A stretch of 37,963 nucleotides of DNA from a virus: positions 1 through 37,963 of the IMG/VR virus record IMGVR_UViG_3300029506_000018, one strand, 5' to 3'. Both the position numbers and the translations under genes were made by a program. Shown here in pieces: positions 4,087 to 37,963 of the stretch (position 1 is the first letter of the stretch; every line of letters starts with the position of its first letter). Below the pieces are notes generated by a model, which did not search any database, was not told where the DNA came from, and saw only the letters and a list, made by a program, of their open reading frames with translations.

Positions 4087-4239
4087 CCGCAGATGAATTA
4101 ACACTCCGCCCGATTCATTCACATATAGATAAATAATTACAATGGGGAGGCTCCGCGTTGTTGCGGAGTTGAGATTTCTTTTTTAGGATGCATTCGGGTA
4201 ATTGCATCCTGATCAGGCGGAGTGTTAGTTCATCTGCTG
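4087..4239. repeat. IR-C: 24-bp inverted repeat (22/24 match) at 4087-4110 and 4216-4239 around a 105-bp segment, in the leader of the early operon
   Basis: Left arm is ccgcagatgaattaacactccgcc. The reverse complement of the right arm is cagcagatgaactaacactccgcc. Confidence 0.9.
4151..4184 (+). terminator. Terminator-like hairpin plus T-tract inside IR-C; works only on the plus strand in the current orientation
   Basis: Stem ctccgc-gttgtt-gcggag, extendable by 2 G-U pairs, is followed by ttgagatttctttttt. On the minus strand the matching hairpins are followed by A-runs. Confidence 0.4.
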
Positions 4240-4360: not shown

Positions 4361-4387
4361 ATACTTATCAGATTGGAGGTGAAATTT

Positions 4388-4777
4388 ATGAATACGCGTT
4401 TGCACCATTTAAGAAAAACATTAAAATTAAGTCAGGAAGATTTTGGAAAACGACTTGGCGTTACTGGTGCATCAATTAGTAGGCTAGAAAAAGGTGAACG
4501 TAACATCACAGAACAAATGATTTTGTCAATATGTCGTGAATTTAACGTTAATGAAAAATGGCTTCGACATAATGAAGGTGAAATGTTTCTTCCTTTTGAA
4601 GATGAAGTTGCAGAAATGGTCTCACAACTATTAGAGGTATCAAATCCTTTTTATGATTTGATCTTGGATATGATGGTATCTTTTAACGAGTTGGACGATA
4701 AAGGCAAGCAAGCTATTTGTGATTACACTGCTTTGCTTGCAGAAAGAATGGCAAAAAGAAAAAAGGAAGACGATTAA
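4388..4777 (+). CDS. cI-like XRE-family repressor (HTH only, no S24 peptidase domain)
   Basis: MNTRLHHLRKTLKLSQEDFGKRLGVTGASISRLEKGERNIT is an HTH_3 signature. The gene is divergent from the early operon. GGAGGT RBS present. Confidence 0.8.
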   Translation: MNTRLHHLRKTLKLSQEDFGKRLGVTGASISRLEKGERNITEQMILSICREFNVNEKWLRHNEGEMFLPFEDEVAEMVSQLLEVSNPFYDLILDMMVSFNELDDKGKQAICDYTALLAERMAKRKKEDD

Positions 4778-6475: not shown

Positions 6476-6662
6476 ACAAATAAAAATACCGCCTAGCTGG
6501 TAACTAGACGGCATTTAAAGAAAACCACTTGCACCTGTTAAGTTAACAGATGAGTACTTTTCCCTCGCAAGTTTAAGTATATCATTTTTTCTTGACACTT
6601 CGCAAGAGGTGTATTTTTTGTACCAAATTTTAATATTTTGTAAAAAGGAAAAGGTGATTACT

Positions 6663-8123
6663 ATGAAAAAGATCGCAGCTGCTTATATAAGAGTCAGTAC
6701 GCACATGCAAGAAGAATTATCTCCAGATGCACAGCTCCGTTTTATTAGGACCTGGGCAGATGCTCATGGTTATTATGTGCCTGACGAATTTGTTTTTATA
6801 GATAGCGGAATTTCTGGAAGGAAAGCAAAGAAACGTCATGACTTTTTACGAATGATCGGGCTCGCCAAAATGAAGCCTTCCCCTTTTGAATCAATCCTTC
6901 TTTGGAAATTTAATCGTTTTGCACGAAACCAAGAGGAAAGCATTTTTTATAAGTCCATGCTTCGTAAAAAATGCAAGGTTGATGTTATCAGCACCACTCA
7001 GCAGACAACGAAAGACATCTACGGAGATCTGATTGAACGTATCATTGAATGGACTGACGAATTCTTTTCTATCCAGTTAGGGGAAGATGTCAAACGAGGA
7101 ATGACTGAAAACGCCCTTCGTGGAAATTTCCAAGCTTCTCCGGCTTTTGGATACAAGGTAGAAAAAGGGCTAGGACTAGTCATTGTTGACGGTCAGGCAA
7201 ATATCGTTCGAATGATTTTTAATTTATATGCCAATACTAGGATGGGATTTTACGAAATCGCTCGCCACTTGAATCGCTTAGGCTATAAAACCAAGAAAGG
7301 TGGAGCTTTTGAGGCTCGCGCAATTAGGTACATTATTCAGAATCCAATCTATAAAGGATACCTTCGATGGAACTATGCAAATGGTACTACACATGCTGTC
7401 AATGATGAAAGCGAATGGATCATCGTAAAATCTCCACTAGTTCCTGTCATCGTGCCTGAAGAACTTTGGGATCGAGCGAACGAGCGTTTAAAAAATGAGT
7501 ATCATCCTAAAAACGGAAAGCCAGTATCAAAGCATCGCCACTGGTTGTCCGGGCTTGTCAAATGCTCTTCCTGCGGTGCGTCTCTTTCTACATCTGTGCA
7601 ATATCGTCGCGATCGCACCTACATTAATTTTCAATGCTATAAGTACCTTAAGGGAAAATGTATGATTTCTCATGGAATTTCTGAAAAGAAGCTTGTTCCG
7701 TTGATTTTAAATGTCTTAAAAGAAGATATGAACAAATCCTACATAGAATGCGAACGTATAGAAAAGGTTGTTGAAAATCAACAGGATATCCTGGATGTTC
7801 AGTTGAAACGTTTGGATGCCAGAGAAGTTCGGATCAAAGAGGCATATTTGAATGGCGTTGATTCTTTGTCAGAATACAAAAGCAATAAAGAACAAATTCA
7901 ACAAGAAAGAGAACTTCTTCTCAAGCAATCACAGAATCATGGCAAAGAGGAAAAAGGATCAAATGAACTTCCTAATAAGATTCGTGGTGTTTATGACATA
8001 CTGGTATCTGATCAATGCAGCAAAGATGAAAAACAAGCTGCAATTCGTTCGATCGTGAAAAAAATTGTATTCGATAAAGAAAACAAAACCTTAGATTTCT
8101 ATTATTACATAAAAGAAGATTAA
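6663..8123 (+). CDS. Large serine recombinase (integrase type)
   Basis: MKKIAAAYIRVSTHMQ carries the catalytic Ser motif. Recombinase domain, zinc ribbon CSSCG...FQCYKYLKGKC and C-terminal coiled coil follow. The start at 6663 follows an AAAGGTGA RBS. Confidence 0.9.
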   Translation: MKKIAAAYIRVSTHMQEELSPDAQLRFIRTWADAHGYYVPDEFVFIDSGISGRKAKKRHDFLRMIGLAKMKPSPFESILLWKFNRFARNQEESIFYKSMLRKKCKVDVISTTQQTTKDIYGDLIERIIEWTDEFFSIQLGEDVKRGMTENALRGNFQASPAFGYKVEKGLGLVIVDGQANIVRMIFNLYANTRMGFYEIARHLNRLGYKTKKGGAFEARAIRYIIQNPIYKGYLRWNYANGTTHAVNDESEWIIVKSPLVPVIVPEELWDRANERLKNEYHPKNGKPVSKHRHWLSGLVKCSSCGASLSTSVQYRRDRTYINFQCYKYLKGKCMISHGISEKKLVPLILNVLKEDMNKSYIECERIEKVVENQQDILDVQLKRLDAREVRIKEAYLNGVDSLSEYKSNKEQIQQERELLLKQSQNHGKEEKGSNELPNKIRGVYDILVSDQCSKDEKQAAIRSIVKKIVFDKENKTLDFYYYIKED

Positions 8124-8165: not shown

Positions 8166-8222
8166 TTTATACGCACTTGCAGAATGGATGACCTTACTGT
8201 AAGTGCGTATAAAGTTTTTTCT
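8166..8222 (+). terminator. Strong intrinsic terminator after the serine recombinase
   Basis: 17-bp stem (1 mismatch) tttatacgcacttgcag / ctgtaagtgcgtataaa, followed by gtttttt. Confidence 0.8.
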
Positions 8223-8340
8223 TTAACACTGAAACAGTGCTATTCTCAACCCATGTCTTCCCTATTTCGGTTCAGATTTCTTAAACAGATTCTTTAGAAA
8301 TGGCATAATTACGTGCTTTTTAAACTTATAATAGATGCTA

Positions 8341-8485
8341 AAAGTGGGTACTTTTCTGTTTTCCGGTTTTTATACAGAAAGTACCCCCTTTTTTGCAAAT
8401 AGTACCCCCTTTTACAACAAGAAAGTACCCTGTTTTAGAACAGGAAAGTACCCCCTTTTATTTTACAAGTTCCAGGTACTTTGTT
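8341..8485. repeat. Iteron array: four direct copies of about GAAAGTACCCCCTTTT at 21-23 bp spacing, flanked by two degenerate inverted copies
   Basis: GTACC cores at 8381, 8402, 8425 and 8448. Inverted GGTACTTT cores sit at 8347-8354 and 8476-8483. Confidence 0.85.
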
Positions 8486-10160: not shown

Positions 10161-10814
10161 TTATTTAAGATATTTAGTTGCTACATATCCAGTAGTTGTT
10201 TTGTATTTAACCTTCGTCCAAGAAGCTCTTTTTTTAACTACTTCTACTTTAGTTCCTTTCGGAATCTTTCCAAGCTCTTTTGATTTCGCATTTGCAGCGC
10301 TCCTGATCGTAAGAGGATCTTTCTTCGTATTTACTGTTGCATACGTTTTTTTCTTTGCAGTTTTCTTTTTAACAGTAAGAAAAAGCTTCCGTTCTGCTTT
10401 TCTTCTTCTTGTCAATCCGTTCAGCACTTTACCGCCAGCTTTATTGTACTGGAGCATCTTTGCGGCGATCGTCGCTCTTGATCTTGTCCCATTTGCAGTT
10501 AATGCATCGATGCTGCCGATGTTGTACGCAAATGATACTAATGCATCAATCTCGTTTTGATTCCATTTGTACTTGCTGTTATACTTCATCACCTTCGGTA
10601 GATACTTCTTATTAAGTGCCTGTTCCAGCCAATTATCTGCTGTTTTCTCTGTGATCTTGAGTCCAGCTTTAACTGTAACTTTTGTAATCGCCTTATCTGC
10701 ATTTGTGATTCCGTAACCGATCGTCCAAACTCCGACTTCGTCTTTATAAGATTTTAGGTATAATCCTTCAAACTCTTTTACGAGTTTAATGCATTTTTTG
10801 CTTACTGCTGCCAT
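10161..10814 (-). CDS. Endolysin: GH24 (T4/lambda-type) lysozyme with a C-terminal SH3b-like binding domain
   Basis: EFEGLYLKSYKDEVGVWTIGYG carries the E/D/T catalytic triad pattern. The C-terminus reads GTKVEVVKKRASWTKVKYKTTTGYVATKYL. Confidence 0.85.
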   Translation of the reverse strand: MAAVSKKCIKLVKEFEGLYLKSYKDEVGVWTIGYGITNADKAITKVTVKAGLKITEKTADNWLEQALNKKYLPKVMKYNSKYKWNQNEIDALVSFAYNIGSIDALTANGTRSRATIAAKMLQYNKAGGKVLNGLTRRRKAERKLFLTVKKKTAKKKTYATVNTKKDPLTIRSAANAKSKELGKIPKGTKVEVVKKRASWTKVKYKTTTGYVATKYLK

Positions 10815-10816
10815 AT

Positions 10817-11302
10817 TTATTCATCCCCCTTATCTGTGTCTTCCAGGATGTCTGCTTTGCTTTTTACTTGTGATCTGATATTTTTCACAAGCGGTTTTAA
10901 AAATTTAGGGATCGGTACTCCGATATCCTGGATGTTTTCCAGGATTGATATGACCTCGTTACATGTGATCCATACCGAAACAATGCTTGCTATTAAAAAT
11001 GAGATCTTAATGTCCAATCCAATCTGGGCAGTTGAATATTTGATCATCTCGTCCACGATCGCGCCTACTACAACCAGTAACCACATCGCTATCTTCTTAA
11101 ATATGCCCCTGATTGATCTGTATGAATTGATATCCTGATTCCTGAATTTCCTTGCAATCAGTCCCGTCGCATAATCAACCAGGTTACTAGTAATCATTAA
11201 TGCACACGGAAATGCTAGCACTCCAAGTAAGCTAGATAATGCTGATCCGATTGCAATTATCATTATTTTTACATTATTTACCTGCTCCATTTTCTTCTTC
11301 AT
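10817..11302 (-). CDS. Holin (LL-H / TcdE-like phage_holin_4 family)
   Basis: Several transmembrane helices, a CNEVISILENI motif, and a position directly upstream of the endolysin. Confidence 0.8.
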   Translation of the reverse strand: MKKKMEQVNNVKIMIIAIGSALSSLLGVLAFPCALMITSNLVDYATGLIARKFRNQDINSYRSIRGIFKKIAMWLLVVVGAIVDEMIKYSTAQIGLDIKISFLIASIVSVWITCNEVISILENIQDIGVPIPKFLKPLVKNIRSQVKSKADILEDTDKGDE

Positions 11303-11404: not shown

Positions 11405-11441
11405 TGCAAAAGGACGTTCTGTTTCGAACGTCCTTTTTGTT
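11405..11441. terminator. Bidirectional terminator downstream of the tyrosine recombinase
   Basis: Stem aggacgttc-tgtttc-gaacgtcct with T-rich flanks on both strands. Confidence 0.6.
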
Positions 11442-12437
11442 TTATATTACGCAACGCTTATGGCTGCATTTTGTTGCTGCTTCTGTTACGTCTGCATACT
11501 CTAGCGTAGTGGCTATGCTAGAATGACCCAGGAACTCCTTAACCTCTTCTATCGGCATGCCGTGGTCCCTTGCATCTGTAGCCGATGTGTGGCGGATCAA
11601 GTGCGGATGTACTCTTCTTTTTATACCTGCTTTCTCTCCAAGTTGTCGGAATCTCTTTTCAATTGCTGCCTTTTTCAAACGATTATATGGCTTTCTTTCT
11701 CCTACAAACAATGCTGGATCATCAAGATTTCTTGTTTCCAGGTAATTTTTCAATGCAAGTTCTGCTTTCGCATTTAAGAAAGAAGTTCTGTGTTTATCTC
11801 CTTTTCCAAACAGATGCACTTCTTTTTTCAAGAAGTCAACATCATCAAGATTCATTCTTTCGCACTCTGTGACACGGCAACCAGTGCTGTAGAAAAACTC
11901 CACCAATGCTTTGTCTCTCACTGTTTCGCATGCATTTCTTAATTGTTCCATCTCAAGCGGAGTTAATGGCTTTTTCTTCTTGCGTTCGTATTTGATACGT
12001 TTTATATTCCTGCACGGATTTCTGTCTATGTACTCTTCATTGGTCGCCCATTCTAAAAACGCATGGATCGCTGATCTCCTGCTGTCCAGTGTTCTATTGC
12101 TAAGTTTTCTTTGTTGCTGAACTTTATACAGATATACCCTAATGTCATTTGTTGTGATTTTCTTAATATCTTTGTTCATTGCCAGGAAGAAGTCTTTCAA
12201 ATATAAATCATATAAGTTTAATGTTTTCAGACTCAATCCCTCAATTTTTCGAGTCACGAAGTAAGTCTGATAACACTCTGGAAGATATCCTTCATATAAC
12301 GTCAATGATGTCTCACGTTTCTTTATCTCATAGTCATTAACAAAGATCGTCAATTGTTTAAACACAATTTTCAGAGAATCATCATCGATCTTGTCGCTTA
12401 GTGTGGTCATAAAGGTAGTTACAAACTGTTCTCTCAT
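11442..12437 (-). CDS. Tyrosine site-specific recombinase (XerC/D-like, phage-integrase family)
   Basis: Catalytic pattern STGCRVTE (R), HLIRHTSAT (HxxR), LGHSS and TLEYAD (Y), with an N-terminal SAM-like core-binding domain. The ATG at 12437 is 6 nt after AAAGGAGA. Confidence 0.9.
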   Translation of the reverse strand: MREQFVTTFMTTLSDKIDDDSLKIVFKQLTIFVNDYEIKKRETSLTLYEGYLPECYQTYFVTRKIEGLSLKTLNLYDLYLKDFFLAMNKDIKKITTNDIRVYLYKVQQQRKLSNRTLDSRRSAIHAFLEWATNEEYIDRNPCRNIKRIKYERKKKKPLTPLEMEQLRNACETVRDKALVEFFYSTGCRVTECERMNLDDVDFLKKEVHLFGKGDKHRTSFLNAKAELALKNYLETRNLDDPALFVGERKPYNRLKKAAIEKRFRQLGEKAGIKRRVHPHLIRHTSATDARDHGMPIEEVKEFLGHSSIATTLEYADVTEAATKCSHKRCVI

Positions 12438-12455
12438 AAACATTCTCCTTTGCTC

Positions 12456-12503
12456 TACCCAAAGGAAAGAGTTTATGTTATAATGTGCTCGTACCTTTGG
12501 GTA
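12456..12503. promoter_or_regulatory. 10-bp inverted repeat TACCCAAAGG-N28-CCTTTGGGTA enclosing a -10-like hexamer upstream of the recombinase gene
   Basis: Arms at 12456-12465 and 12494-12503. TATAAT lies on the plus strand at 12479-12484 and TATAAC on the minus strand. Confidence 0.4.
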
Positions 12504-12830
12504 CCGTGTTTTGGAGCTGAACTTTTTGATTGGTAGTCGGGAGTTTAGCTCCTTCTTTATTTAGTTTCTAACTACATTTTACCATTTAATTGTTACAAAA
12601 CTGCCTATTTTACTGTTCTTTTAGACACGTTTAATAGTTCTGTAACACCTGCATTGAATGTGTAATCTTTGACTCATTTCAGGTAAAAAACGTCTGTCTT
12701 TTTTAGTTAACTAAAGCTTTTTTTAGTTTTCTTTTTAACTTAACGCTTTAGTCGGCCATGTGGCTTTCTCTCCCCAATGAACAATGATGGATTATCATCT
12801 CCATGAGTGCAAATAGGGTAGAAACCTTTT

Positions 12831-14483
12831 TTAGATATTTCTTAATTTTGCTTCTACGTAGGGGACGTAAAATTTTTCATAACCTTCTTTGGTTGGATGT
12901 GTACCATCATTATTAGCTGTATATTTGAGATAACTTGATATAGCTGTATTGAAACAACTTATGTTGTATAGGTCACAATATGGCATACTGTATTTTTTCA
13001 ACACGCTCTCAATAGCATCGTGTACTTCTGTCATTGTGTGCGAACCATTATTATAATCATTTATTTTTGTATATGGCGTATCTTTAATTTTGTGAGAAAA
13101 CACAAAAAGAATCTTTTTTCCTTCATATCTTTCCAATAGTTTTCGACACATATATTCAGTTCCACCGATTATTCTTGATGTATTTGTTATTTCGCTAGTA
13201 TAATCATCTGTAAGACTTCCAATAGTTCCTCTATAGATATGATCGTTATATCCACCACCAACAATAATATAATCGGCATCTTCATCCATTGTTTCAATAT
13301 TATCGCAGATGTGAAATACTGTTTCGTTTGTCCCAGACATAATCGTAGCACCTGATACAGCATAATTTATACAAGTCATGTTGTTTTTTTCTGCAATCAT
13401 GTCAACATATGATTTGTTACCTTTTGTATCCCCGTTGTAGCCTTGTCCTTTTACTATACTGTCTCCAATACATACTATTTTTTTGCCATATAAAAGATTA
13501 TCATTATTTTTGTTCAAAAATTCTTTTACTGTTAGTTGTGATACTTTTGTCAATTTGGGCCCTACAGATGTACTAGTTCCTTGTGCACCATTAATTTTTA
13601 CATATGCCGTTCTTAATGGTGTTGTCAACTCGATATCTACATAGTTTTTGGCAGTGCCATCCCCACACTCACTACCTAACAATTTATCGGCAGTGTCAAA
13701 ATATAATATTAGTGGATATTTTTTGTTTTGTTGCGAGCGTCCACTCACTTTTATTTTACACAATCCTTCTACCTGAGCTTTCCCCCATCTTGCATACGCA
13801 GAAGAGTATAGCTCTCCATCTGTACTAATTGCCTGTCCTTCCGTTATTTCTAATTGTACAACTTCTTCTTTGTATTCTGTTTCTGTATGATTTTTTTCGA
13901 TTTCTAAAGATTCCTTTAGTTGACCAATTTGTCCTCTAAGTGCATCTCCAGCATTGTCATAGACTGTCCCATCTTCTCCTATGCACATATTTTTAAGCTC
14001 AGCTAATCTAATGTCATTTATATCTCTCTCATATGCTATCGTTACAACTGCTGCAAAAAGATACTGCCCAACGACACTACTTGATCCAGAATACACAGTT
14101 ATAACATATTCATCGTTTGTTGACTCTACATTATAACTTGATGGGATGCCTTTACCATTTATTGCTACTCCATCTAATGCTTTAGCAATAACATTAGCAT
14201 TTATAACTGTAGGTGACTTATCCTTTATGCTTTTCAGTGTTTCATTGTCTTTGCTACTAATTTTAAATGTAAGGTCGCTGGCGCTGTTATTTCTGATTGT
14301 CCCCGACTGTACAGTTACTATCTCAACGCTTGACGCTGTACCACTAAGCATTCCATCAATTTTTTTGCTCTCAGTTGCTAATTTTTCATCAATTATGTCC
14401 ATATTGTTATTTATATCTTTAATGTTTACATAATCGTTCTCTTCTGGTTTTATCAGATTTAAATTTTTTGTTTTTGTGCTCAT
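12831..14483 (-). CDS. Tail fibre / receptor-binding protein with a C-terminal SGNH (GDSL) hydrolase domain
   Basis: The N-terminus KNLNLIKPEENDYVNIKDINNNMDIIDEKL is typical of Firmicute phage fibres. SGNH blocks are CIGDSIVKG, NYAVSGATI, GGGYNDH and DGTHPT. Confidence 0.8.
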   Translation of the reverse strand: MSTKTKNLNLIKPEENDYVNIKDINNNMDIIDEKLATESKKIDGMLSGTASSVEIVTVQSGTIRNNSASDLTFKISSKDNETLKSIKDKSPTVINANVIAKALDGVAINGKGIPSSYNVESTNDEYVITVYSGSSSVVGQYLFAAVVTIAYERDINDIRLAELKNMCIGEDGTVYDNAGDALRGQIGQLKESLEIEKNHTETEYKEEVVQLEITEGQAISTDGELYSSAYARWGKAQVEGLCKIKVSGRSQQNKKYPLILYFDTADKLLGSECGDGTAKNYVDIELTTPLRTAYVKINGAQGTSTSVGPKLTKVSQLTVKEFLNKNNDNLLYGKKIVCIGDSIVKGQGYNGDTKGNKSYVDMIAEKNNMTCINYAVSGATIMSGTNETVFHICDNIETMDEDADYIIVGGGYNDHIYRGTIGSLTDDYTSEITNTSRIIGGTEYMCRKLLERYEGKKILFVFSHKIKDTPYTKINDYNNGSHTMTEVHDAIESVLKKYSMPYCDLYNISCFNTAISSYLKYTANNDGTHPTKEGYEKFYVPYVEAKLRNI

Positions 14484-15022
14484 GGCATTTCCTCCAATTC
14501 AGTGCCGCTTCGTAATTCTTCCCACGTGTACTTGTGCATCTCGCTCCATGTGTACTTGTGCATTGTTTTCCATTTGTTGTACCTTATTCCAATGTCCATC
14601 GTGATATTTAACGGCACAATCTCTTCAAGTAGCTTCTTAAATTCGTCTTCCATAGCTTTTTTCTTAAGGCCTAACAGACAAATCATTTTCATTTCGTCAG
14701 GTACAACGGCAATCGTATAATTTCCTTTGCCTAACAAATCATTCATTTTATTCATTAGACTCTCTTGCGTGTACGGATAGCTGTCATACCATTTCATCAT
14801 CACGCGGAATCTCCTCAGTTCAAGACTATCCGTATCTTGCGGATTTATGCCAAGGATCTTTTCTCGTCGTTTTATCCCTGTTTCTGATGATCCTGCAATA
14901 CTTGTATTACTATCGCAGTCCGCAATGTTATCCTCAAATTTTTGTCCCACAACTTCTTCAGCATCAAATATTGCATTCATTTCATCAATTTCAAAGATAC
15001 ATTCCGGATACTCTAAGTGCAT
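14480..15022 (-). CDS. XkdU/YmfQ-like baseplate-tail protein (DUF2313-like)
   Basis: Position after baseplate J. The motif LELRRFRVMMKWYDSYPYT matches this family as recalled. Confidence 0.65.
   Translation of the reverse strand: MHLEYPECIFEIDEMNAIFDAEEVVGQKFEDNIADCDSNTSIAGSSETGIKRREKILGINPQDTDSLELRRFRVMMKWYDSYPYTQESLMNKMNDLLGKGNYTIAVVPDEMKMICLLGLKKKAMEDEFKKLLEEIVPLNITMDIGIRYNKWKTMHKYTWSEMHKYTWEELRSGTELEEMP
14522..14563. repeat. Tandem 24-bp-period duplication (18-mers 17/18 identical) encoding MHKYTWSE / MHKYTWEE
   Basis: ccacgtgtacttgtgcat at 14522-14539 and ccatgtgtacttgtgcat at 14546-14563. Confidence 0.85.
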
Positions 15023-28512: not shown

Positions 28513-30246
28513 CTACCATTCATTTTCTAAGAATTTATCTAACGCTTCTTCTCTCGGATTTATAAAAATATGATATCTCGCCAATTTGTAAGCACATAAC
28601 GTCGCATCTACTGGATCAATCTTCTTTGCTGTTGCATCCTTGTCAATTTTGATCAAGCCATTGTTTTTCTTAATTACTGCATTACTCATAGCGTAATTTA
28701 AGACCGGATTATATAAATAACAAACATTACCCATAAGCACTTCTTCTCTGAATCCTTCCGTCGACTCATTCAATGATTTATGACTTTGGAAAACTTCTTC
28801 TACAATGTATCCTTCATCGCTTAAATCAATCATAAGTTTACTTGCATTCGCCGGATCAAAGCATAGTGTTTGGATATCCAGTTCTTTCTCCTTGCAAAAG
28901 TCAAGAACATAGTCCATAACTACGTTCTGATCAACAATTTCGCTATTTGTCATTGTTATGAACCCTTGTCTTTCCCATGCGTCATATGGGACCTTATCTT
29001 TAAATACCCTTTCCATCATTTTTTCTTGATTTGGGATAAAAGAATGTGATAATACAATGTATTCTGTTCGCTCTCTTCCTTTTTTATCAAAGTTCCCATT
29101 TCTGTATGGAATTACAAAAGCTACTGACGTTAAGTCAATCTTGGAAGACATATCAAATCCGACGTAAACTGGTTTTCCTTTTATGCTAATTGGAAGATTT
29201 TTCACTTCGCATTTCTTCCATTTTTCCATATTCATATAGCCATTTTCTTTCTGTTGTACCCATACATTCAGCATTTTTGTTAAAAAGGCTATCATTTTTT
29301 CTGGAATTACCTTTGCGATCTCGTAATCTCCACGGATTTTTTCTCGTCCGGCCGAATATGACATTCTGATCGGATTCGCTTTCTTCCAGTTTTCTTCGTC
29401 GCCGATATCGTCTCCTGGATCAATCTCCATAATGTCTATCAAATATGTATCATTTTCAACGTCGATATTAGAATCTAACACCTTGCTGCAATAATCGTAT
29501 TCCTGCGTGTAACAAGGATACGTCAGATCCATTCCTGCTGTTGTGATGATCATCAATAACGATTCTTTTGTATTCGATCCAAGGCCGAGATCAAGAAACT
29601 CTGTTGTTTTGTGCTGATGGTACTCGTCTACGATCAATCCAGCTGGGTTGGTTCCGTCTCCAGTCTTTCCGTCTTCTTTTGACAGTGCTTTTATGTAGCT
29701 TCCTGTTTTTACATGTGTGATCGCATTATTCGTAAGTTTGAACTTCTTCTTTAATGGCGATCCGTTCAACATCAGTTTTGCCTCTTCAAATACAATCTTA
29801 GACTGATCTCGTTTCACACCTGCTGTATAGTATTCATAGACTTCTTTATTTTTTGTTGCCTGCACAGAAATTTCATACAATGCAACACCTGCTTCTTCCT
29901 GACTCTTTGCATTTTTTCTTGCAACTTCGACGAAACTTTTCTTGAACCGCTTATACCCATCCTCTTTTCTTCTCCATCCATAGAGTTGACACAAATGAAA
30001 CTGCTGCCATTCCGTCAGCTTTATTGGTTTCCCTGCCAACACTCCCTTTGAATGTCTCAGGAAGCTGAACCATTTGATTATCTTTTGTGCTTCCTGGTCG
30101 TCCCAGTAAAAAGAGGCTTCTCCACTGTCTTCCCTTTTCACATCTCTCAAAAATCTGCTGCATGCCTGCTTGTGCTTCTTGCAAGAGATTATTTTTCCAC
30201 TGATACAGTCAGTTGCATATCTGATCAGCCTGTTCTTGACTGTCAT
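28513..30246 (-). CDS. terL: Terminase large subunit
   Basis: 577 aa. Walker B-like LIVDEYHQH and a C-terminal nuclease region. Confidence 0.9.
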   Translation of the reverse strand: MTVKNRLIRYATDCISGKIISCKKHKQACSRFLRDVKREDSGEASFYWDDQEAQKIIKWFSFLRHSKGVLAGKPIKLTEWQQFHLCQLYGWRRKEDGYKRFKKSFVEVARKNAKSQEEAGVALYEISVQATKNKEVYEYYTAGVKRDQSKIVFEEAKLMLNGSPLKKKFKLTNNAITHVKTGSYIKALSKEDGKTGDGTNPAGLIVDEYHQHKTTEFLDLGLGSNTKESLLMIITTAGMDLTYPCYTQEYDYCSKVLDSNIDVENDTYLIDIMEIDPGDDIGDEENWKKANPIRMSYSAGREKIRGDYEIAKVIPEKMIAFLTKMLNVWVQQKENGYMNMEKWKKCEVKNLPISIKGKPVYVGFDMSSKIDLTSVAFVIPYRNGNFDKKGRERTEYIVLSHSFIPNQEKMMERVFKDKVPYDAWERQGFITMTNSEIVDQNVVMDYVLDFCKEKELDIQTLCFDPANASKLMIDLSDEGYIVEEVFQSHKSLNESTEGFREEVLMGNVCYLYNPVLNYAMSNAVIKKNNGLIKIDKDATAKKIDPVDATLCAYKLARYHIFINPREEALDKFLENEW

Positions 30247-30731
30247 ATGTCACCAAATTCATCATTAATCTCACTATCAATTCCCTCTCTTGCAATTGTT
30301 GCTGCTTTCAGCCTTGAATCTATTGTAAGTCCGCACATTGATGCAAACTTACGCATCTCCTCTGAATACATTTTTTGCAGATCACACAACGGATTTTTAA
30401 CCAAAATTTCGCCGTTTTGAGTCGGTTTTATGATCACTTTCTTCTCTTTTTTGAGCTGTTTTGTTACCGAAATATAGTAAGAAAATGCGTTACAATAGCA
30501 TCCCAGGTTGTTTACATCTAGGTTACCGATCACATCTATTTCCATTTTTTCAAACTCTTTTACAAGTCGTTTAAATTCATTTTTTGCTATCGCATCAATC
30601 AGCCAAGTTGGCGGTTTTGCTAGGCTTTCCTTGCCTGTCTGTACAAGTCGTTCTTCCAGTTTTTTGTCTTCCTGTTGTGCAACTGTCAGATTCCCTTTTT
30701 GTGTTGCAAGTGGCTTTCGTTTTCGTGGCAT
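30243..30731 (-). CDS. terS: Terminase small subunit (P27 family)
   Basis: 162 aa with an ATGA overlap with terL. The N-terminus RKRKPLATQKGNLT is typical of the P27 family. Confidence 0.8.
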   Translation of the reverse strand: MPRKRKPLATQKGNLTVAQQEDKKLEERLVQTGKESLAKPPTWLIDAIAKNEFKRLVKEFEKMEIDVIGNLDVNNLGCYCNAFSYYISVTKQLKKEKKVIIKPTQNGEILVKNPLCDLQKMYSEEMRKFASMCGLTIDSRLKAATIAREGIDSEINDEFGDI

Positions 30732-31298: not shown

Positions 31299-31372
31299 TG
31301 GACCTCCAGGGTCTCGAACCCTGGACCGATCGGTTATGAGCCGACTGCTCTGACCAACTGAGCTAGAGGTCC
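31299..31372 (-). tRNA. tRNA with CAU anticodon (elongator Met, or lysidine-modified Ile2 reading AUA)
   Basis: A 74-nt cloverleaf folded by hand: acceptor GGACCTC/GAGGTCC, D stem GCTC/GAGC, anticodon stem GTCGG/CCGAT, loop CTCATAA, T arm CAGGG-TTCGAGA-CCCTG. No encoded CCA. It lacks the initiator features (1:72 mismatch, GGG/CCC anticodon stem). Confidence 0.9.
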
Positions 31373-34873: not shown

Positions 34874-35096
34874 CAGACAGCTTAGTTCTTTACCTGATGC
34901 AGTGTATTTAACCGTGATCACTGATTCTTTCTTTTTGTCTAATCATGTTAAATCCCTGTGATTCTTCGTTTGTTGTTTGTGATTTGTAAAAAATAATAAT
35001 GATTGTGTTATAAATAAACAGAAACTTGATAATGTATAATAAAACTTTGTTAATAGTTGCTAAAAGAATCTCTCAGGTAAAGAACTAAGCTGTCTG
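34874..35096. repeat. IR-B: perfect 24-bp inverted repeat at 34874-34897 and 35073-35096 around 175 bp of AT-rich non-coding DNA
   Basis: cagacagcttagttctttacctga versus tcaggtaaagaactaagctgtctg are exact reverse complements. TTCT lies immediately outside both arms. Confidence 0.95.
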
Positions 35097-35685: not shown

Positions 35686-36002
35686 TGTTCTTTCCTTTCT
35701 GCAAACTCCATACTTTCTGCCACGATCTCCGTCGTGTACACTTTTGTTCCGTCTGTTTTTATATAGCTCCCTGTTTGGATTCTTCCTTCCAGTGCGATCT
35801 TGATTCCTTGATCCAGCCATTTGTCTGCAAATTCTGCGCCTTTACCAAACGCAACGCATCCGATAAAATCTGCATCCTGCTGCCCTTCTCGCTTAAATCT
35901 GCGATCTACCGCTAGTGTAAACCTTGCTATACACAGATCTTCTTCATTCCAACTTATCTCAGGCTTCCTGGTTAATCTGCCCATTAGCATTACTTTGTTC
36001 AT
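35682..36002 (-). CDS. ssb: Single-stranded DNA-binding protein (short, no acidic tail)
   Basis: MNKVMLMGRLTRKPE...FTLAV...FIGCVAFGKGAEF...IALEGRIQTGSY OB-fold pattern. Confidence 0.85.
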   Translation of the reverse strand: MNKVMLMGRLTRKPEISWNEEDLCIARFTLAVDRRFKREGQQDADFIGCVAFGKGAEFADKWLDQGIKIALEGRIQTGSYIKTDGTKVYTTEIVAESMEFAERKEQ

Positions 36003-37477
36003 ATATCCTCCACTTCTGAGAGTCCCAGGATGCAGTATCCTTCTTCCAAGCCCTTAAAGCCTTCCAGGATATAGATCACTTGTTTCTCTGTTACTCTTCC
36101 TGTTTCTTCTCCATCACTCATCTCGTGCAGTTCCAGGACGTCTCCGATCTGATAGTTCCTATCATTTTTTCGCAGTTCGAATGACTTCTTTCCTGTGTCC
36201 ACTGCATCGAAGAACATCTTTGCAAGCTTTAGGCGGTGTCTTCGCTCGTCTGATTCGCTTCCTGGTACTTCTACCTTATTCGTCTGTGGAATCTCTACGC
36301 ATTCCGTCTTTTGTTCTTCTGCTGCCTTAGTATCGAATTGGATCATATCGCTGATCGCGTCTGCCATTTTAATAACTGTCTTTTTAACAATTTCTTCAAA
36401 ATTATCTTTGCATAGTTTTATATAGCCTTTTCCGCAGTCATACCATCCGTCAAACCCATTAGATCCTCGTAACGTTCCGCCAGCTCCTTTATATCGTTCT
36501 CCCATGTATTTTTTTAATTCCAATGAATTCTTTATATCTTGTCTATTAATGTCTCTTTGAATTCTCTCTGCAAACGCTTCTAATGCCTGTTTTTCTAATT
36601 CATCCTGATCCGGACAGCATTCCGGATAGTCTCTTTCCGCTTCCACCTGTCCTTCAATCTCTGCTTCTTCCTCTTCTTCTGTCTCATCCGCTTCGGCTTC
36701 CTGTCTTGATTCCTTTAGCTCTGCTTCCTGTTGTTCTTCCAGGATGCGTTGCTTGTATTCTCTTATCTTTTTTACAGTTATGATCTTATCTGGATACCAG
36801 CTATATATTTCTTCCTGTTCATCTTCTTCCATTCCTGCGATCTCCACTGCTGTCGAAAAGCTGATTTCCTGTTTTTCTAATAGCTTTCTCAGTTCCGGAA
36901 TCAAATTGTTGTTGATGCTCATTGCATTGGCGATCTGTGTTGGCTTCTTCCCGAGGATTTTTGCCGCTATGTCTCGCAGTCTTCCAGATTCCAGATCATA
37001 GCCCATGATCTTCTCTCCTGCTGCCTTTGCATCCTTTAGCGCGTCCGTTAACAATTTGATTCGCTCTAATTCTTTCTCTGGTGTCGCTTTTCGGTAGCTA
37101 TTGGAGATACATAGCTCAATGATCTCTTCATTTTTGCTTCGTGGCTTTCTGATCTGGCATGTAGCTTCTCTAAATTCCTGGAGATCTTCTTCCTCTACCA
37201 GTTTCTTTAGTGCTCTCCATCTTCGTTCGCCTCCGATCAGCTTGTATTCTTCTCCTTTTTCATTCGGTTCGTACATAACTTCTAGTGGCTGTAGCAATCC
37301 AAGTAGTTTGATCTCTGCTGCCTTTTCGTCGATGCCGTTCTGATCGCTTATGTTGTCTTCGTTTGCGTAAATGTTATAAACATCTATATCTTTTGTTCGG
37401 AATCGTGCTTTCGGCTTCTCTTCGATTCCTTCCTTACTCGTTTTATTTAGCATGTCCATGACGTTAAATCCTGCCAT
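35999..37477 (-). CDS. parB: ParB/Srx-domain protein fused to a C-terminal ASCH/DUF3850-like domain
   Basis: The N-terminus LLQPLEV...KLIGGERRWRALKKL is the ParB box (GERRxRA). The C-terminus HRLKLAKMFFDAVDTGKKSFELRKNDRNYQIGDVLELHEM is DUF3850/ASCH-like. Confidence 0.8.
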   Translation of the reverse strand: MAGFNVMDMLNKTSKEGIEEKPKARFRTKDIDVYNIYANEDNISDQNGIDEKAAEIKLLGLLQPLEVMYEPNEKGEEYKLIGGERRWRALKKLVEEEDLQEFREATCQIRKPRSKNEEIIELCISNSYRKATPEKELERIKLLTDALKDAKAAGEKIMGYDLESGRLRDIAAKILGKKPTQIANAMSINNNLIPELRKLLEKQEISFSTAVEIAGMEEDEQEEIYSWYPDKIITVKKIREYKQRILEEQQEAELKESRQEAEADETEEEEEAEIEGQVEAERDYPECCPDQDELEKQALEAFAERIQRDINRQDIKNSLELKKYMGERYKGAGGTLRGSNGFDGWYDCGKGYIKLCKDNFEEIVKKTVIKMADAISDMIQFDTKAAEEQKTECVEIPQTNKVEVPGSESDERRHRLKLAKMFFDAVDTGKKSFELRKNDRNYQIGDVLELHEMSDGEETGRVTEKQVIYILEGFKGLEEGYCILGLSEVEDI

Positions 37478-37494
37478 GTTTCTTTCCTCCTTTC

Positions 37495-37963
37495 CTAGTC
37501 TACTTTCTGGAATCTACCAGTTTTCTTATTTCTTCGTTTTGATTCTATGTACTTTTGAGCTTCATTCCACTCTTCTTCTGTCATGATCTCTTTTAGTACG
37601 TTGTTGTAATCCTTTGCCGCATTACTGCTCTTTGACATTTCTGAGAGTGGTCTAAATGCTGTTTCTGCCTTTTCTGCTACTACAGATCTTCTTATCTCTG
37701 TCTGGAACATCTTGTCCTTGTATGTGTCTCTTAGCCATTTGGCTGTGTCTTTGTTCGTCTGGTTTCCGGTCTTCATGGTCATTAGTATCCTGATTTGCTG
37801 CCCTTCATGAATTCCTTTCGCCTGTTCAATCATATTTTCAATTGCTTCGATTCCATAACCACCTGCTTTCACAGGAATTATCAACAATTCTGACGCTTTA
37901 ACCACATTTAGTACTGTTACATCTAGTAATAATCCACAATCGCATATTACGTAATCGTATTTA
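37495..37963 (-). CDS. parA: ParA C-terminal part (same gene as 1..452; 37865..37963 duplicates 1..99)
   Basis: The frame is open to the window end. ...VKASELLIIPVKAGGYGIEAIENMIEQ... continues the N-terminal part. Confidence 0.85.
   Translation of the reverse strand, partial: KYDYVICDCGLLLDVTVLNVVKASELLIIPVKAGGYGIEAIENMIEQAKGIHEGQQIRILMTMKTGNQTNKDTAKWLRDTYKDKMFQTEIRRSVVAEKAETAFRPLSEMSKSSNAAKDYNNVLKEIMTEEEWNEAQKYIESKRRNKKTGRFQKVD

Follow-up and report, generated by a model that had tools for sequence, protein, structure and literature searches.

The tail-fibre locus of a temperate gut phage carries a gene for a tyrosine recombinase that most likely helps to swap the receptor-binding end of the fibre rather than to integrate the phage. 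The window, that is, the whole stretch of 37,963 nucleotides that was analysed, encodes a serine integrase besides, and the gene order at the locus is fibre, recombinase, holin. In its full form, the explanation favoured here is tentative and is given somewhat less than an even chance: an optional, armless Xer-like enzyme, from a family found at fibre loci, would exchange the receptor-binding cassette at two core sites, A and B, while being throttled by an antisense RNA and a structured leader. The host choice of a phage is decided by the tips of its tail fibres, and programmed fibre diversifiers are known, namely DNA inversion (Gin/Cin/Min, Rin) and diversity-generating retroelements. The locus suggests a second mode, in which a whole receptor-binding cassette is replaced or lost between two directly oriented sites. 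If true, this mode would account for the very sharp joints of the fibre mosaics of many gut phages, and the hinge and palindrome sites could be natural landing pads for host-range engineering. The features are located in Table 1.

Table 1. Features of the window at the fibre, recombinase and integration loci.
Feature	Position	Strand	Remarks
Large serine recombinase, phage integrase	6609..8123	plus	Resolvase, Recombinase and Zn_ribbon_recom domains
attP-like site of the serine integrase	8166..8215		13-bp inverted repeat TTTATACGCACTT..AAGTGCGTATAAA
Bidirectional intrinsic terminator hairpin GGACGTTC..GAACGTCC	11408..11437		12-bp stem; closes the recombinase unit
Tyrosine recombinase gene	11442..12437	minus	331 aa from ATG; Pfam, alignments, predicted structure
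Shine-Dalgarno sequence (SD) AAAGGAGA	12444..12451	minus	Abuts the first ATG
Anti-SD arm, CCUUUGGGUA in the mRNA	12456..12465	minus	Can pair with the SD or the upstream arm
Extended -10 promoter TGTTATAAT of the predicted cis-antisense sRNA	12476..12484	plus	Inside the inverted-repeat loop
Predicted antisense sRNA, about 70 nt	12491..12566	plus	Hairpin 12513-12552; U tract 12553-12566 (intrinsic terminator)
Anti-anti-SD arm, UACCCAAAGG in the mRNA	12494..12503	minus	Second arm of the 10-bp inverted repeat
Sense promoter, extended -10 TGGTAAAAT	12576..12584	minus	Predicted 5'UTR of about 130 nt
Palindromic core, site B	12706..12731	minus	GAAAACTAA-AAAAAGCT-TTAGTTAAC; left edge of the leader and recombinase cassette
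Fragment of another recombinase allele (..DDNPSLFIGERKPHGRLKR-stop)	12746..12799	minus	87% identical to the L010 recombinase over its codons 240-257
Tail fibre gene (550 aa)	12831..14483	minus	Conserved N-terminal part, hinge GQIGQLKES, variable C-terminal part
Core at the fibre hinge, site A	13902..13923	minus	TCAACTAAAGGAATCT / TTAGAA, coding QLKES / LE

A sequence-only reading of the window had recognized a complete XerC/D-like recombinase, as is now confirmed. The intact open reading frame (11442-12443, minus strand, 333 aa) extends to an upstream ATG at 12443. The start codon is likely the ATG at 12437, yielding 331 residues, because the first ATG directly adjoins the Shine-Dalgarno sequence and the homologues, too, have a length of 331 residues. 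The protein matches Pfam PF00589 (Phage_integrase) with an E-value of 2e-36 and SAM-like N-terminal domains over residues 65-138. Residues R188, K212, H279, R282, H305 and Y314 are invariant in alignments of homologues. With this catalytic set and the PF00589 fold, the protein belongs to the tyrosine recombinase superfamily. An AF2 model superposes on the cores of XerA, IntI4, Cre and lambda Int, and shows a helical N-terminal extension followed by a Xer-like core-binding domain and the catalytic domain. In this model, the extension consists of two predicted helices (2-13 and 19-33) and a disordered linker, and the N-terminus is devoid of an arm-binding domain, no β-sheet arm-type domain being formed. 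As modelled, the enzyme is of the simple class (armless, Xer-like) with core-binding and catalytic domains only. The dN/dS ratio of 0.053, calculated against the homologue from L010, indicates strong purifying selection, and nearly all of the best 120 database homologues have the same length, about 331 residues.

In sequence and in fold, the protein resembles XerA, XerC/D and XerH most closely (PDB 4a8e, 5hxy, 1a0p, 5jjv). The score against the NCBIfam model XerA_Arch (NF040815) is 225.7 bits for a cut-off of 220, but the gene lies in a phage fibre module and not at a chromosome terminus. The cut-offs of the XerC/XerD equivalogs are missed (TIGR02224, 186.7 vs 335; TIGR02225, 154.1 vs 330), as are those of integron integrases (TIGR02249 and NF011946, 92.1 vs 265 and 52.5 vs 435). 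FimB/E-type models yield only 33-46 bits for cut-offs of about 221, and no Rci-named NCBIfam model is among the matches listed at E ≤ 1e-5. A DNA search of 50,697 GenBank phages with the recombinase region gave no match. In a profile search of genome contigs with the recombinase alignment, the matches listed comprise only distant Xer-like genes, at most 40% identical, and provided no prophage or host context.

The position of the gene, previously thought to be unusual, turned out to be shared: the order fibre, recombinase, holin is also found in cultured Clostridia phages (the Terrisporobacter phage TPELB_ph1 and the C. perfringens phage phiCp-D) and in some 25 contigs from IMG/VR. The recombinase gene of TPELB_ph1, a phage that likewise encodes a serine integrase, comes after the fibre genes and before the holin gene, as does the homologue in phiCp-D. 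In another clade, a homologue follows the reverse transcriptase of a diversity-generating retroelement (DGR). An "integrase" annotation at the fibre-holin position is a poor guide to the integration module of a phage. The gene is judged to be accessory, because it is missing from a close relative (L145, holin 97% identical), which retains the terminator hairpin. That the gene has its own terminator, earlier placed at 11405-11441, is upheld by the hairpin with its 12-bp stem, which is the right edge of the conserved recombinase cassette. With its own promoter, leader and terminator, the locus is an autonomous transcription unit. The upstream region of about 390 bp had been called non-coding. 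Its 387 bp (12444-12830) are indeed devoid of open reading frames of at least 50 codons, but they are not empty, as they contain a fragment of a recombinase gene, a palindromic element, the sense promoter and the structured leader. The fragment, of 70 bp and from another recombinase gene (12746-12799), comes directly after the fibre stop codon. In-frame fibre-recombinase fusions (P0001, P0003, P0005, P0010, P0011) were considered as programmed products and rejected; by DNA comparison they are nested deletions within one integrated prophage lineage, of which L394 represents the undeleted ancestor and L155 a case that is out of frame.

The variable C-terminal part of the fibre contains a GDSL esterase domain. 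Sites A and B, which have AACTAA-N8-TTAG in common and are directly oriented, bracket the receptor-binding part of the gene; in relatives, precisely this segment has been exchanged or is missing. In site B, two arms of approximately 9 bp enclose an 8-bp spacer; the site is located about 290 bp upstream of the recombinase start codon. The homology of five other fibres to that of the window stops exactly after GGAATCT in site A, and L396 and L397 diverge from the window directly past this motif. In L010 and L395, homology extends to 13902/13908 and resumes at 12713/12728, with unrelated DNA between. Mosaic breakpoints at 12713-12728, inside site B, were found in L004, L005, L010, L011, L394 and L395. 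Two contigs (L394 and L019) display an "empty" junction, made of the left half of site A and the right half of site B, followed by the leader and the recombinase gene, which in L394 are 98.8% identical to those of the window. The deletions in the variants L006, L041 and L155 start at most 1 nt apart, within the spacer of the core, and in L004 extra copies of the site flank an insert encoding 93 aa and an HNH protein. Searching for the 14-mer CAACTAAAGGAATC yielded an excess of chance matches, only those in L019 and L222 being real.

According to the favoured explanation, the gene would encode an active, optional, simple enzyme from a phage family that lives at the tail-fibre locus and works on it. 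The enzyme would recombine the A and B cores, either between themselves or with matching ones carried by co-resident phages or prophages, so that the receptor-binding cassette is replaced, captured or deleted and the host range is changed. Deletion between A and B would leave the junction CAACTAAAGGAATCT / TTAGTTAACTAAAAAAGACAG, and the excised circle would carry GAAAACTAAAAAAAGCT / TTAGAAATCGAAAAAAATC. A more specific version, rather doubtful, is an integron-like cassette exchange for host range that would combine the hinge site (..QLKES/) and a palindrome distributed over hundreds of gut phages with an IS10-like sRNA and a leader sequestering the Shine-Dalgarno sequence.

We infer from the mosaic joints that the recombinase, rather than homologous recombination, may catalyse the exchanges. 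Among the matches listed, the palindromic element of site B occurs in more than 120 gut phage contigs, with a recombinase homologue nearby in only 8 of 117 loci. As it is common where there is no recombinase, the element does not need one encoded in cis, and recombinase-assisted exchange is therefore unproven. It could simply form a conserved hairpin at gene ends and thereby favour homologous recombination, or deletion driven by the palindrome. Likewise, the sharp breakpoints at the hinge could reflect domain modularity, as ..SLKE.. is conserved in these fibres as a hinge motif of the protein, too. With at most 2 mismatches allowed, the loose pattern AACTAA-N8-TTAGTT occurs in the window 3 times for 2.97 expected, which is no enrichment. 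Tyrosine recombinases usually require identical overlap regions, and the spacers of sites A and B differ (AGGAATCT vs AAAAAGCT). Some members of the clade (L013, L014 and the L015 type) have no site-B-like element beside the leader. No excised cassette circle was observed and, among about 25 relatives, no inversion or rearrangement is attributable to the enzyme of the window clade. The reading of the palindrome at 12701-12716 as a recombinase-specific site was downgraded after a viral scan, which revealed a widespread fibre-end element, mostly without recombinase.

The region preceding the gene contains an exact 10-bp inverted repeat, TACCCAAAGG (12456-12465) and CCTTTGGGTA (12494-12503), with a 28-nt spacer. 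The repeat had been noticed earlier, wrapped around a -10 element, and is as described; the element is a perfect extended -10, but it lies on the plus strand and is antisense to the recombinase gene. The sense -10 position reads TGGTATAAT, TGTTATAAT or TGCTATAAT in relatives. All 20 unique leaders have the antisense -10 TGnTATA[AC]T and a U-rich tail after the sRNA hairpin, the stem of which is invariant; the signals for a convergent promoter and terminator over the recombinase 5'UTR, an IS10-like arrangement, are thus found in 20/20. The anti-anti-SD helix exhibits compensatory changes, with 12 G-U against 1 A-C cells. Because MAFFT/RNAalifold misaligned the second helix of the leader, the pair statistics were obtained from explicit registers. 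The predicted 5' end of the sRNA is complementary to the anti-anti-SD arm. A search of the whole window against Rfam at gathering thresholds returned only a tRNA elsewhere, and at E ≤ 10 the region 12380-12900 gave chance-level matches, with no family for the leader and antisense region. The 10-bp repeat is regarded as a conserved regulatory RNA and antisense-promoter structure and not as a recombination site.

It is proposed that the promoter, the leader and the antisense sRNA keep the expression of the recombinase low. The anti-SD arm would pair either with the Shine-Dalgarno sequence (off) or with the upstream anti-anti-SD arm (on). The 5' end of the convergent sRNA of about 70 nt would mask the anti-anti-SD arm, in a manner that resembles the control of the IS10 transposase by RNA-OUT. 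We infer that the sRNA is probably made and inhibitory. This control region, a leader with an antisense RNA that has no Rfam family, is conserved and so far undescribed, and its sequence signals are easy to test.

A related enzyme is associated with fibre inversion in sister phages (L146-L153) that have the same backbone, share attP with the window and have holins 80-84% identical. Over 313 aa, with the N-terminal extension included, their recombinase is 40% identical to that of the window, and four CA(G/A)CTAAATTCTGA sites of alternating orientation flank it. Segments that are 99% identical are inverted or transposed between sister contigs, with bounds falling exactly at these sites. At every site, QLNS is encoded in frame with a C-terminus of 83-112 aa that differs from site to site, and the constant N-terminus of the fibre is homologous to that of the window's fibre. 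By this comparison of contigs, the homologue demonstrably lies inside an active multi-inversion fibre shufflon. Shufflons with a tyrosine recombinase also occur, as these contigs indicate, in Clostridia-type gut phages.

A fibre switch had been considered unsupported in the sequence-only reading. It is correct that the window contains no inverted fibre fragments; crossover sites in inverted orientation around alternative C-terminal segments are absent from it and from the approximately 25 loci of its clade. Inverted repeats of at least 12 nt within 5 kb upstream of the recombinase gene showed nothing consistent over all clade loci, and palindromes are the only inverted HSPs among clade members. 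The dismissal was nevertheless premature, given the sister shufflon and the fibre cassette bracketed by sites A and B. Two inverted pairs in the window, of 22 nt (11703-11724 / 14885-14906) and 19 nt (12197-12215 / 12910-12928), were judged to be at chance level.

The sister shufflon raises the alternative of an orphan invertase that has lost its own cassettes and acts in trans on invertible fibre segments, or on other sites, of co-resident prophages or of the host. This is unlikely, although it has most to commend it among the rivals: the homologue in the sister phages is a working shufflon enzyme, and the gene of the window is under purifying selection in spite of the absence of inverted partner sites in cis. 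Furthermore, L154 has a pair of shufflon sites without a recombinase within 10 kb, and action in trans is therefore plausible. However, the sister-type site CAGCTAAATTCTGA is missing from the window, where only 3-mismatch matches at chance level were found. No trans target was identified, and a large clade with an elaborate, dedicated control region does not look like a relic.

Decidedly less probable is a Cre/Xer-like resolvase or cyclase that would use site B to resolve circular or plasmid multimers or to circularize incoming DNA. The resemblance to XerA, XerC/D and XerH, the dyad-symmetric site about 290 bp upstream of the start codon, and the ParA- and ParB-like proteins encoded in the genome fit such a role. 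The phage with the phiCp-D homologue also encodes ParM, and the stretch shown contains no further integrase. Yet nothing specifically favours this reading. The relatives are integrated in the chromosome by means of the serine integrase. One close relative has no copy of the gene, and repeated deletions in prophages have occurred without loss of the attP form. Its position is always after fibre modules and not beside replication or partition genes, and resolution would leave the second site at the fibre hinge and the cassette-sized replacements unexplained.

A slim chance is given to a selfish mobile cassette, a 1.3-kb unit of promoter, leader, recombinase gene and terminator that would insert after fibre genes without benefit to the phage. 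The unit has sharp conserved borders (12713-12728 and 11408) and is present in unrelated phage backbones but not in a close relative; beside it is a fragment of a second copy, and IS10-like antisense control is typical of transposable elements. On the other hand, the unit was found to have neither terminal repeats nor target duplications of its own. Its right border consists of an ordinary terminator, kept in L145 which has no recombinase, and the left border is the widespread fibre-end palindrome.

Integration of the phage can be attributed to the serine recombinase, whose gene adjoins those of cI-like regulators, in keeping with the earlier description of a large serine recombinase beside the repressor. 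In integrated prophages about 91% identical to the window (L006-L009), homology stops at about 8182 and host genes follow; this end falls within the attP-like repeat, which lies 45 bp past the serine integrase gene. In L155, the attP junction is intact despite truncation of the tyrosine recombinase to 169 aa. Because the prophage junctions of the relatives map to the attP beside the serine integrase gene, the tyrosine recombinase is judged not to be the phage integrase, in agreement with the sequence-only reading. That it might be a second integrase, inserting the phage at an alternative attB via an attP in 12444-12830, is very improbable. Related phage records do label the gene "integrase", and there is a candidate core site upstream of it, but every integrated relative seen uses the attP of the serine integrase. 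In these relatives the recombinase gene lies within the prophage, where it is co-linear with the late genes. The arm-binding domain is absent from the model, in which the N-terminal extension is two helices, and host DNA abuts the leader or site B in none of the contigs. Hardly credible is the earlier suggestion that the enzyme inverts the segments between the inverted repeats 4089/4212, 8820/9102 and 34874/35073: such long repeats are present (24 nt at 100%, 26 nt at 92%, 22 nt at 91%), but the segment with 24-nt arms (34874/35073) is oriented alike with respect to its two flanks in 21 related contigs, a single exact arm is retained in many relatives, the 26-nt pair (4089/4212) is unflipped in 4 relatives, an 8820/9102 arm has no match in viral contigs, and the three repeats have no sequence in common with each other or with the sites near the recombinase gene. 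RecV/FimB-like invertons are thus not recognized here, as only one orientation was found (21/21 and 4/4 relatives).

Among known systems, the control region is reminiscent of IS10 RNA-IN/RNA-OUT, in which a convergent promoter in the 5'UTR likewise yields a short hairpin RNA (about 70 nt) over the translation control of a DNA-rearranging enzyme. It differs in that the predicted antisense RNA would act by masking the anti-anti-SD arm rather than by covering the Shine-Dalgarno sequence or start codon, and in that the RNA is predicted from sequence alone, with no Rfam match. The enzyme has the two-domain armless architecture of XerA, XerC, XerD and XerH, and the candidate site has the short inverted arms and 8-bp spacer of theirs. 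Unlike these resolvases, it is phage-borne, accessory and fibre-linked, has an additional helical N-terminal extension of 55 aa, scores far below the XerC and XerD cut-offs and is without a dif-like context. If the favoured model is right, the locus has in common with integrons and engineered cassette exchange an armless tyrosine recombinase beside a primary site. As in integrons, the cassettes would end in imperfect palindromes, "empty" and multi-cassette states would exist, and cassette-end palindromes would be widespread without a nearby recombinase, like CALINs. In contrast to integron cassettes, those of the window are fused in frame into a structural gene and not expressed from a Pc promoter, there is no sign of single-stranded substrates for the enzyme, whose mechanism is hypothetical, and the score against the integron integrase model is 92 vs 265 bits.

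With R64 Rci/sfx and Gin/Cin/Min, the proposed exchange shares recombination where the constant N-terminal part of an adhesin or fibre meets its variable C-terminal parts, with a change of specificity (PMC6109161). All these systems differ by operating through inversion, and Gin, Cin and Min are serine invertases. The enzyme is proposed to be of the same kind as Rin, the shufflon invertase of Bifidobacterium prophages, a comparison made on architecture (PMC6109161). In contrast to Rin, the window has no inverted sites or alternative segments, and its candidate sites are direct and bracket one large cassette. The site sequence is unlike rix (TTCCCTAACCC), the host lineage is Clostridia-type and not Bifidobacterium, and the antisense and leader control has no counterpart mentioned for Rin in the excerpts of PMC6109161. 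Nevertheless, the gene of the window lies beside the fibre genes of a phage with a separate integrase. According to Mavrich et al. 2018 (PMC6109161), Rin is likewise an armless XerD-like tyrosine recombinase encoded beside receptor-binding or tail-fibre genes, in temperate phages of Gram-positive gut bacteria that carry a separate integrase. The sister phages L146-L153 show the complete architecture of Rin, with their constant N-terminus, short crossover sites and alternative C-terminal segments of varied order and orientation.

The genome was assembled as a circle of ~37.86 kb, with an exact 99-bp terminal overlap (bases 1-99 = 37865-37963), and is that of a temperate phage. The late genes lie on the minus strand from the terminase subunits to the fibre, and include those of sheath, tape measure, baseplate J and Mu-gp48-like proteins. 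The lysogeny module, on the plus strand, comprises a cI-like repressor, a DUF4236 membrane protein and a large serine recombinase. The early region encodes ParA- and ParB-like proteins, a replication initiator and SSB. The ParB-like gene, whose 492-aa product has an RNA-binding-like C-terminal part, and the ParA-like gene are found in the early operon (35999-37905) of this phage, which integrates by its serine recombinase; the ParA-like ORF heads toward the circular junction. A tRNA gene (31299-31372, minus strand, Rfam 66 bits) separates the early and packaging modules.

Coordinates of the genes and signals discussed
Feature	Position	Strand	Remark
Small terminase subunit	30243..30731	-	
Large terminase subunit	28513..30246	-	
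Tail fibre	12831..14483	-	550 aa, C-terminal GDSL esterase domain
Tyrosine recombinase	11442..12443	-	between fibre and holin
Holin	10817..11302	-	downstream of recombinase
Lysozyme-SH3 endolysin	10161..10814	-	downstream of holin
cI-like repressor	4373..4777	+	
Large serine recombinase	6609..8123	+	lysogeny module
Site A, TCAACTAAAGGAATCT/TTAGAA	13923-13902	-	fibre hinge ..GQIGQLKES/LEIEK..
Site B, GAAAACTAA-AAAAAGCT-TTAGTTAAC	12731-12706	-	just upstream of promoter
Sense promoter, extended -10 TGGTAAAAT	12584..12576	-	in relatives TGGTATAAT, TGTTATAAT or TGCTATAAT
Antisense extended -10	12476-12484	+	
Antisense hairpin	12513-12552	+	
Antisense U-rich tail	12553-12566	+	
attP-like 13-bp inverted repeat TTTATACGCACTT..AAGTGCGTATAAA	8166-8215		45 bp past serine recombinase stop codon; contains 8182

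The sequence-only reading had proposed a complete, autonomous tyrosine recombinase, and all the features that it listed were recovered at the positions it gave. The gene is indeed intact, with every catalytic residue present, and has its own promoter, its own leader and, as proposed, its own terminator (a strong hairpin at 11408-11437). The true start codon is probably the ATG at 12437, because homologues are 331 aa long and the Shine-Dalgarno sequence (SD) abuts this first ATG. In the AF2 model (pLDDT 84.6), two helices extend the N-terminus, residues 41-49 form a disordered linker and the body is Xer-like; the top fold matches are XerA, IntI4, the Tn1549 Int core and XerH. The NCBIfam XerA_Arch cut-off is reached marginally; the scores are far under the cut-offs for XerC, XerD, IntI, XerS and FimB/E.

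The upstream region had been described as 390 bp of non-coding DNA. Its 387 bp hold no ORF, but are densely functional, not empty. The 10-bp inverted repeat with its 28-nt spacer (12456-12465 and 12494-12503) is exact; the -10 element noticed within it exists, but belongs to the strand opposite to the gene, where it forms a perfect extended -10. The region was read from an alignment of relatives, using 19 recombinase-linked leaders for helices and 20 unique leaders for antisense signals. The leader holds an invariant 10-11-bp hairpin, and the downstream arm of the repeat, CCUUUGGGUA, also pairs with the SD CAAAGGAG. Both helices are retained in all 19 leaders, and the window leader folds with z = -4.4. 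Compensatory changes occur in the repeat (C-G / A-U / U-G, and C-G / U-A / G-C), and it has 12 G-U cells versus one A-C, which indicates RNA pairing on the sense strand. On the antisense strand, the repeat loop of each of the 20 unique leaders contains TGnTATA[AC]T, with the hairpin 20-28 nt downstream and a U-rich tail after it; from this a cis-antisense RNA of 63-71 nt is predicted. Its 5' end would cover the upstream (anti-anti-SD) arm, so that the SD would stay sequestered. An Rfam search of the window and the upstream region returned no matching family for leader or antisense RNA. Owing to the conserved helices, compensatory changes and antisense signals, the inverted repeat is regulatory, a point on which the sequence-only reading was wrong; evidence for it as a recombination site was not found. 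Three loci (L029, L035, L038) keep the promoter, hairpins and antisense signals without the recombinase; they diverge exactly at the SD, with an amidase gene 200 nt on.

The candidate substrates are two cores, sites A and B, directly oriented on the coding strand. The 1.18 kb between them codes for two-thirds of the fibre, its variable C-terminal portion, and includes a fragment of another recombinase allele. This 70-bp internal piece (12746-12799, minus strand) lies immediately past the fibre stop codon, and is evidence of past tandem copies or module turnover. In the related contigs L010 and L395, similarity to the window breaks off at 13902 and 13908 and resumes at 12713 and 12728; their intervening DNA (1.1 and 1.9 kb) differs and encodes different fibre ends. 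Two others, L396 and L397, have the hinge in common with the window and depart from it right after GGAATCT. The left homology borders of L004, L005, L010, L011, L394 and L395 all fall within site B. In L394, which has 98.8% identity to the window over leader and gene, and in L019, a short fibre-like gene ends in ..QLKES(I/L)VN*, the DNA of this end being exactly the left half of site A joined to the right half of site B. The L019 gene, otherwise unrelated to the window fibre, has an identical 25-nt island in common with it. In L004 (675-1335), the leader is immediately preceded by a 625-bp insert that two to three core/palindrome copies surround and that encodes proteins of 93 aa and 68 aa, the latter of HNH type. 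Within one integrated prophage lineage (L006, L007-L009, L039, L040, L041 and L155 compared with L394), recurrent deletions with six different junctions join upstream fibre-like genes to the recombinase gene in its 5' portion, five of them as in-frame fusion ORFs. Three have start points in the core spacer that differ by no more than 1 nt, and end at different points within the recombinase gene; three further deletions begin elsewhere.

The sharp fibre joints could also arise without this recombinase. Scanning for CTAAAG-N4-CTTTAGTTAAC retrieved more than 120 gut-phage contigs, in which the palindrome coincides with the stop codon of fibre genes that are long and variable and contain a ..SLKE.. 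hinge. In the IMG/VR contigs L277-L393, the palindromic element TAATTAACTAAAG-N4-CTTTAGTTAAC (window 12706-12731) is stop-codon-rich and is found where variable fibre genes end. A recombinase homologue was present at eight of the 117 loci listed, downstream of the element in seven, six of these starting 215-391 nt from it. The element is therefore independent of a neighbouring recombinase; it may be a linker for homologous recombination, a fragile palindrome or an RNA-level signal. At one or more loci a minor capsid protein 2 gene lies downstream of it; others have genes there that look lysin- or DGR-target-like.

One alternative is an invertase that is orphaned or acts in trans. Neither inverted fibre pieces nor inverted repeats of at least 12 nt upstream of the gene were found in the window or its clade, and no segment inversion was seen between clade members. 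A Cre/Xer-like resolvase is another. The fibre - recombinase - holin - endolysin order recurs in two cultured phages: C. perfringens phage phiCp-D (recombinase 31% identical), with ParM nearby, and Terrisporobacter phage TPELB_ph1 (34%), where a large serine recombinase also adjoins the lysis genes. As a third alternative, the gene may be a selfish cassette. A 1.3-kb unit (~12713-11408: promoter, leader, gene, terminator) is common, at 76-99% identity, to phages with unrelated fibre and lysis genes, and L145, whose holin is 97% identical to that of the window, has no recombinase between fibre module and holin. The family is very large (2,096 protein database matches at E <= 1e-10); most of the best 120 of these are 331 aa long, at 53-100% identity. 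The gene is optional, yet conserved and under selection; dN/dS between the window and L010 is 0.053. At 24 IMG/VR loci found through the leader motif, it follows fibre genes, several of GDSL type, and precedes lysis genes or follows a DGR-type reverse transcriptase. The receptor-binding module is the constant partner of the family. In a group of 76-83-kb phages (L020, L025, L033, L034; e.g. L034 1036-6319), leader and recombinase come after a 587-aa protein and an RVT_1 reverse transcriptase, so that the unit adjoins a probable DGR.

A second integrase is unlikely. Four metagenomic contigs (L006-L009, 13-155 kb) carry a prophage with ~91% identity to the window; the match extends across the lysis genes, picks up again at 8463-8182 and stops there, giving way to bacterial genes (YbaK-like, carbonic anhydrase, ABC transporter). 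In the sister phages L146-L153, too, homology closes with the short stretch 8182-8220. Since the prophage ends at 8182, inside the attP-like repeat, the serine recombinase is the integrase and the tyrosine recombinase is internal to the prophage, in agreement with the sequence-only reading. In L155 the attP junction is intact, with the lysin then window 8462 through 6602 as one block, and the tyrosine recombinase is cut down to a 169-aa fragment; the gene is thus dispensable for the circular form. Four direct repeats, (A)AGTACCCC(C/T)TTTT, at 8340-8460, just within the prophage end, could bind an RDF, a regulator or a partition protein.

Also unlikely is an invertase of the inverted-repeat cassettes, as had been suggested: the pair at 34874/35073 was flipped in none of 21 relatives and that at 4089/4212 in none of four. 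The former is a perfect 24-bp repeat (34874-34897 / 35073-35096) around 175 bp with a promoter-like TGTATAAT; many relatives retain only one exact arm, and a role as origin or in regulation is more probable for it than one as inverton. The latter (4089-4114 / 4212-4237, 26 nt, 92%) surrounds two small hairpins in the region of the divergent regulators.

The absence of inverted fibre pieces had been correctly noted, but dismissing a link to the fibre was premature in view of the sister phages. These have holins 80-84% identical to that of the window, share the attP fragment, and encode a recombinase 40% identical over 313 residues, N-terminal extension included. It sits among four CA(G/A)CTAAATTCTGA sites of alternating orientation (e.g. 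L146 689-3229; L152 708-4170). Between contigs, segments of 640-660 bp (99% identical), delimited exactly by these sites, are inverted in place or shifted across the recombinase gene. Every site codes QLNS, in frame with a differing C-terminus of 83-112 aa, and the constant ORF, starting MKMATKTTNYGLEKPDG..MDIIDKQ, is homologous to the window fibre N-terminus. L154 has two such sites and no recombinase within 10 kb.

Our preferred reading, held tentatively and at a little under even confidence, is that the enzyme is a recombinase of the fibre locus, of the Rin/shufflon kind, and that the arrangement here serves to replace or lose a cassette, not to invert one, with expression restrained by antisense and leader control. 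The exchange role is put forward conditionally, because the palindromic element is independent of the recombinase and the spacers of sites A and B differ; it is suggested by the activity that the family shows in sister phages, by the CA(A/G)CTAAA half-site that these phages share at the corresponding point of the fibre, and by how the joints are laid out. The sister locus itself is an active tyrosine-recombinase fibre shufflon, of the same type as the Rin system that occurs in Bifidobacterium prophages (PMC6109161).
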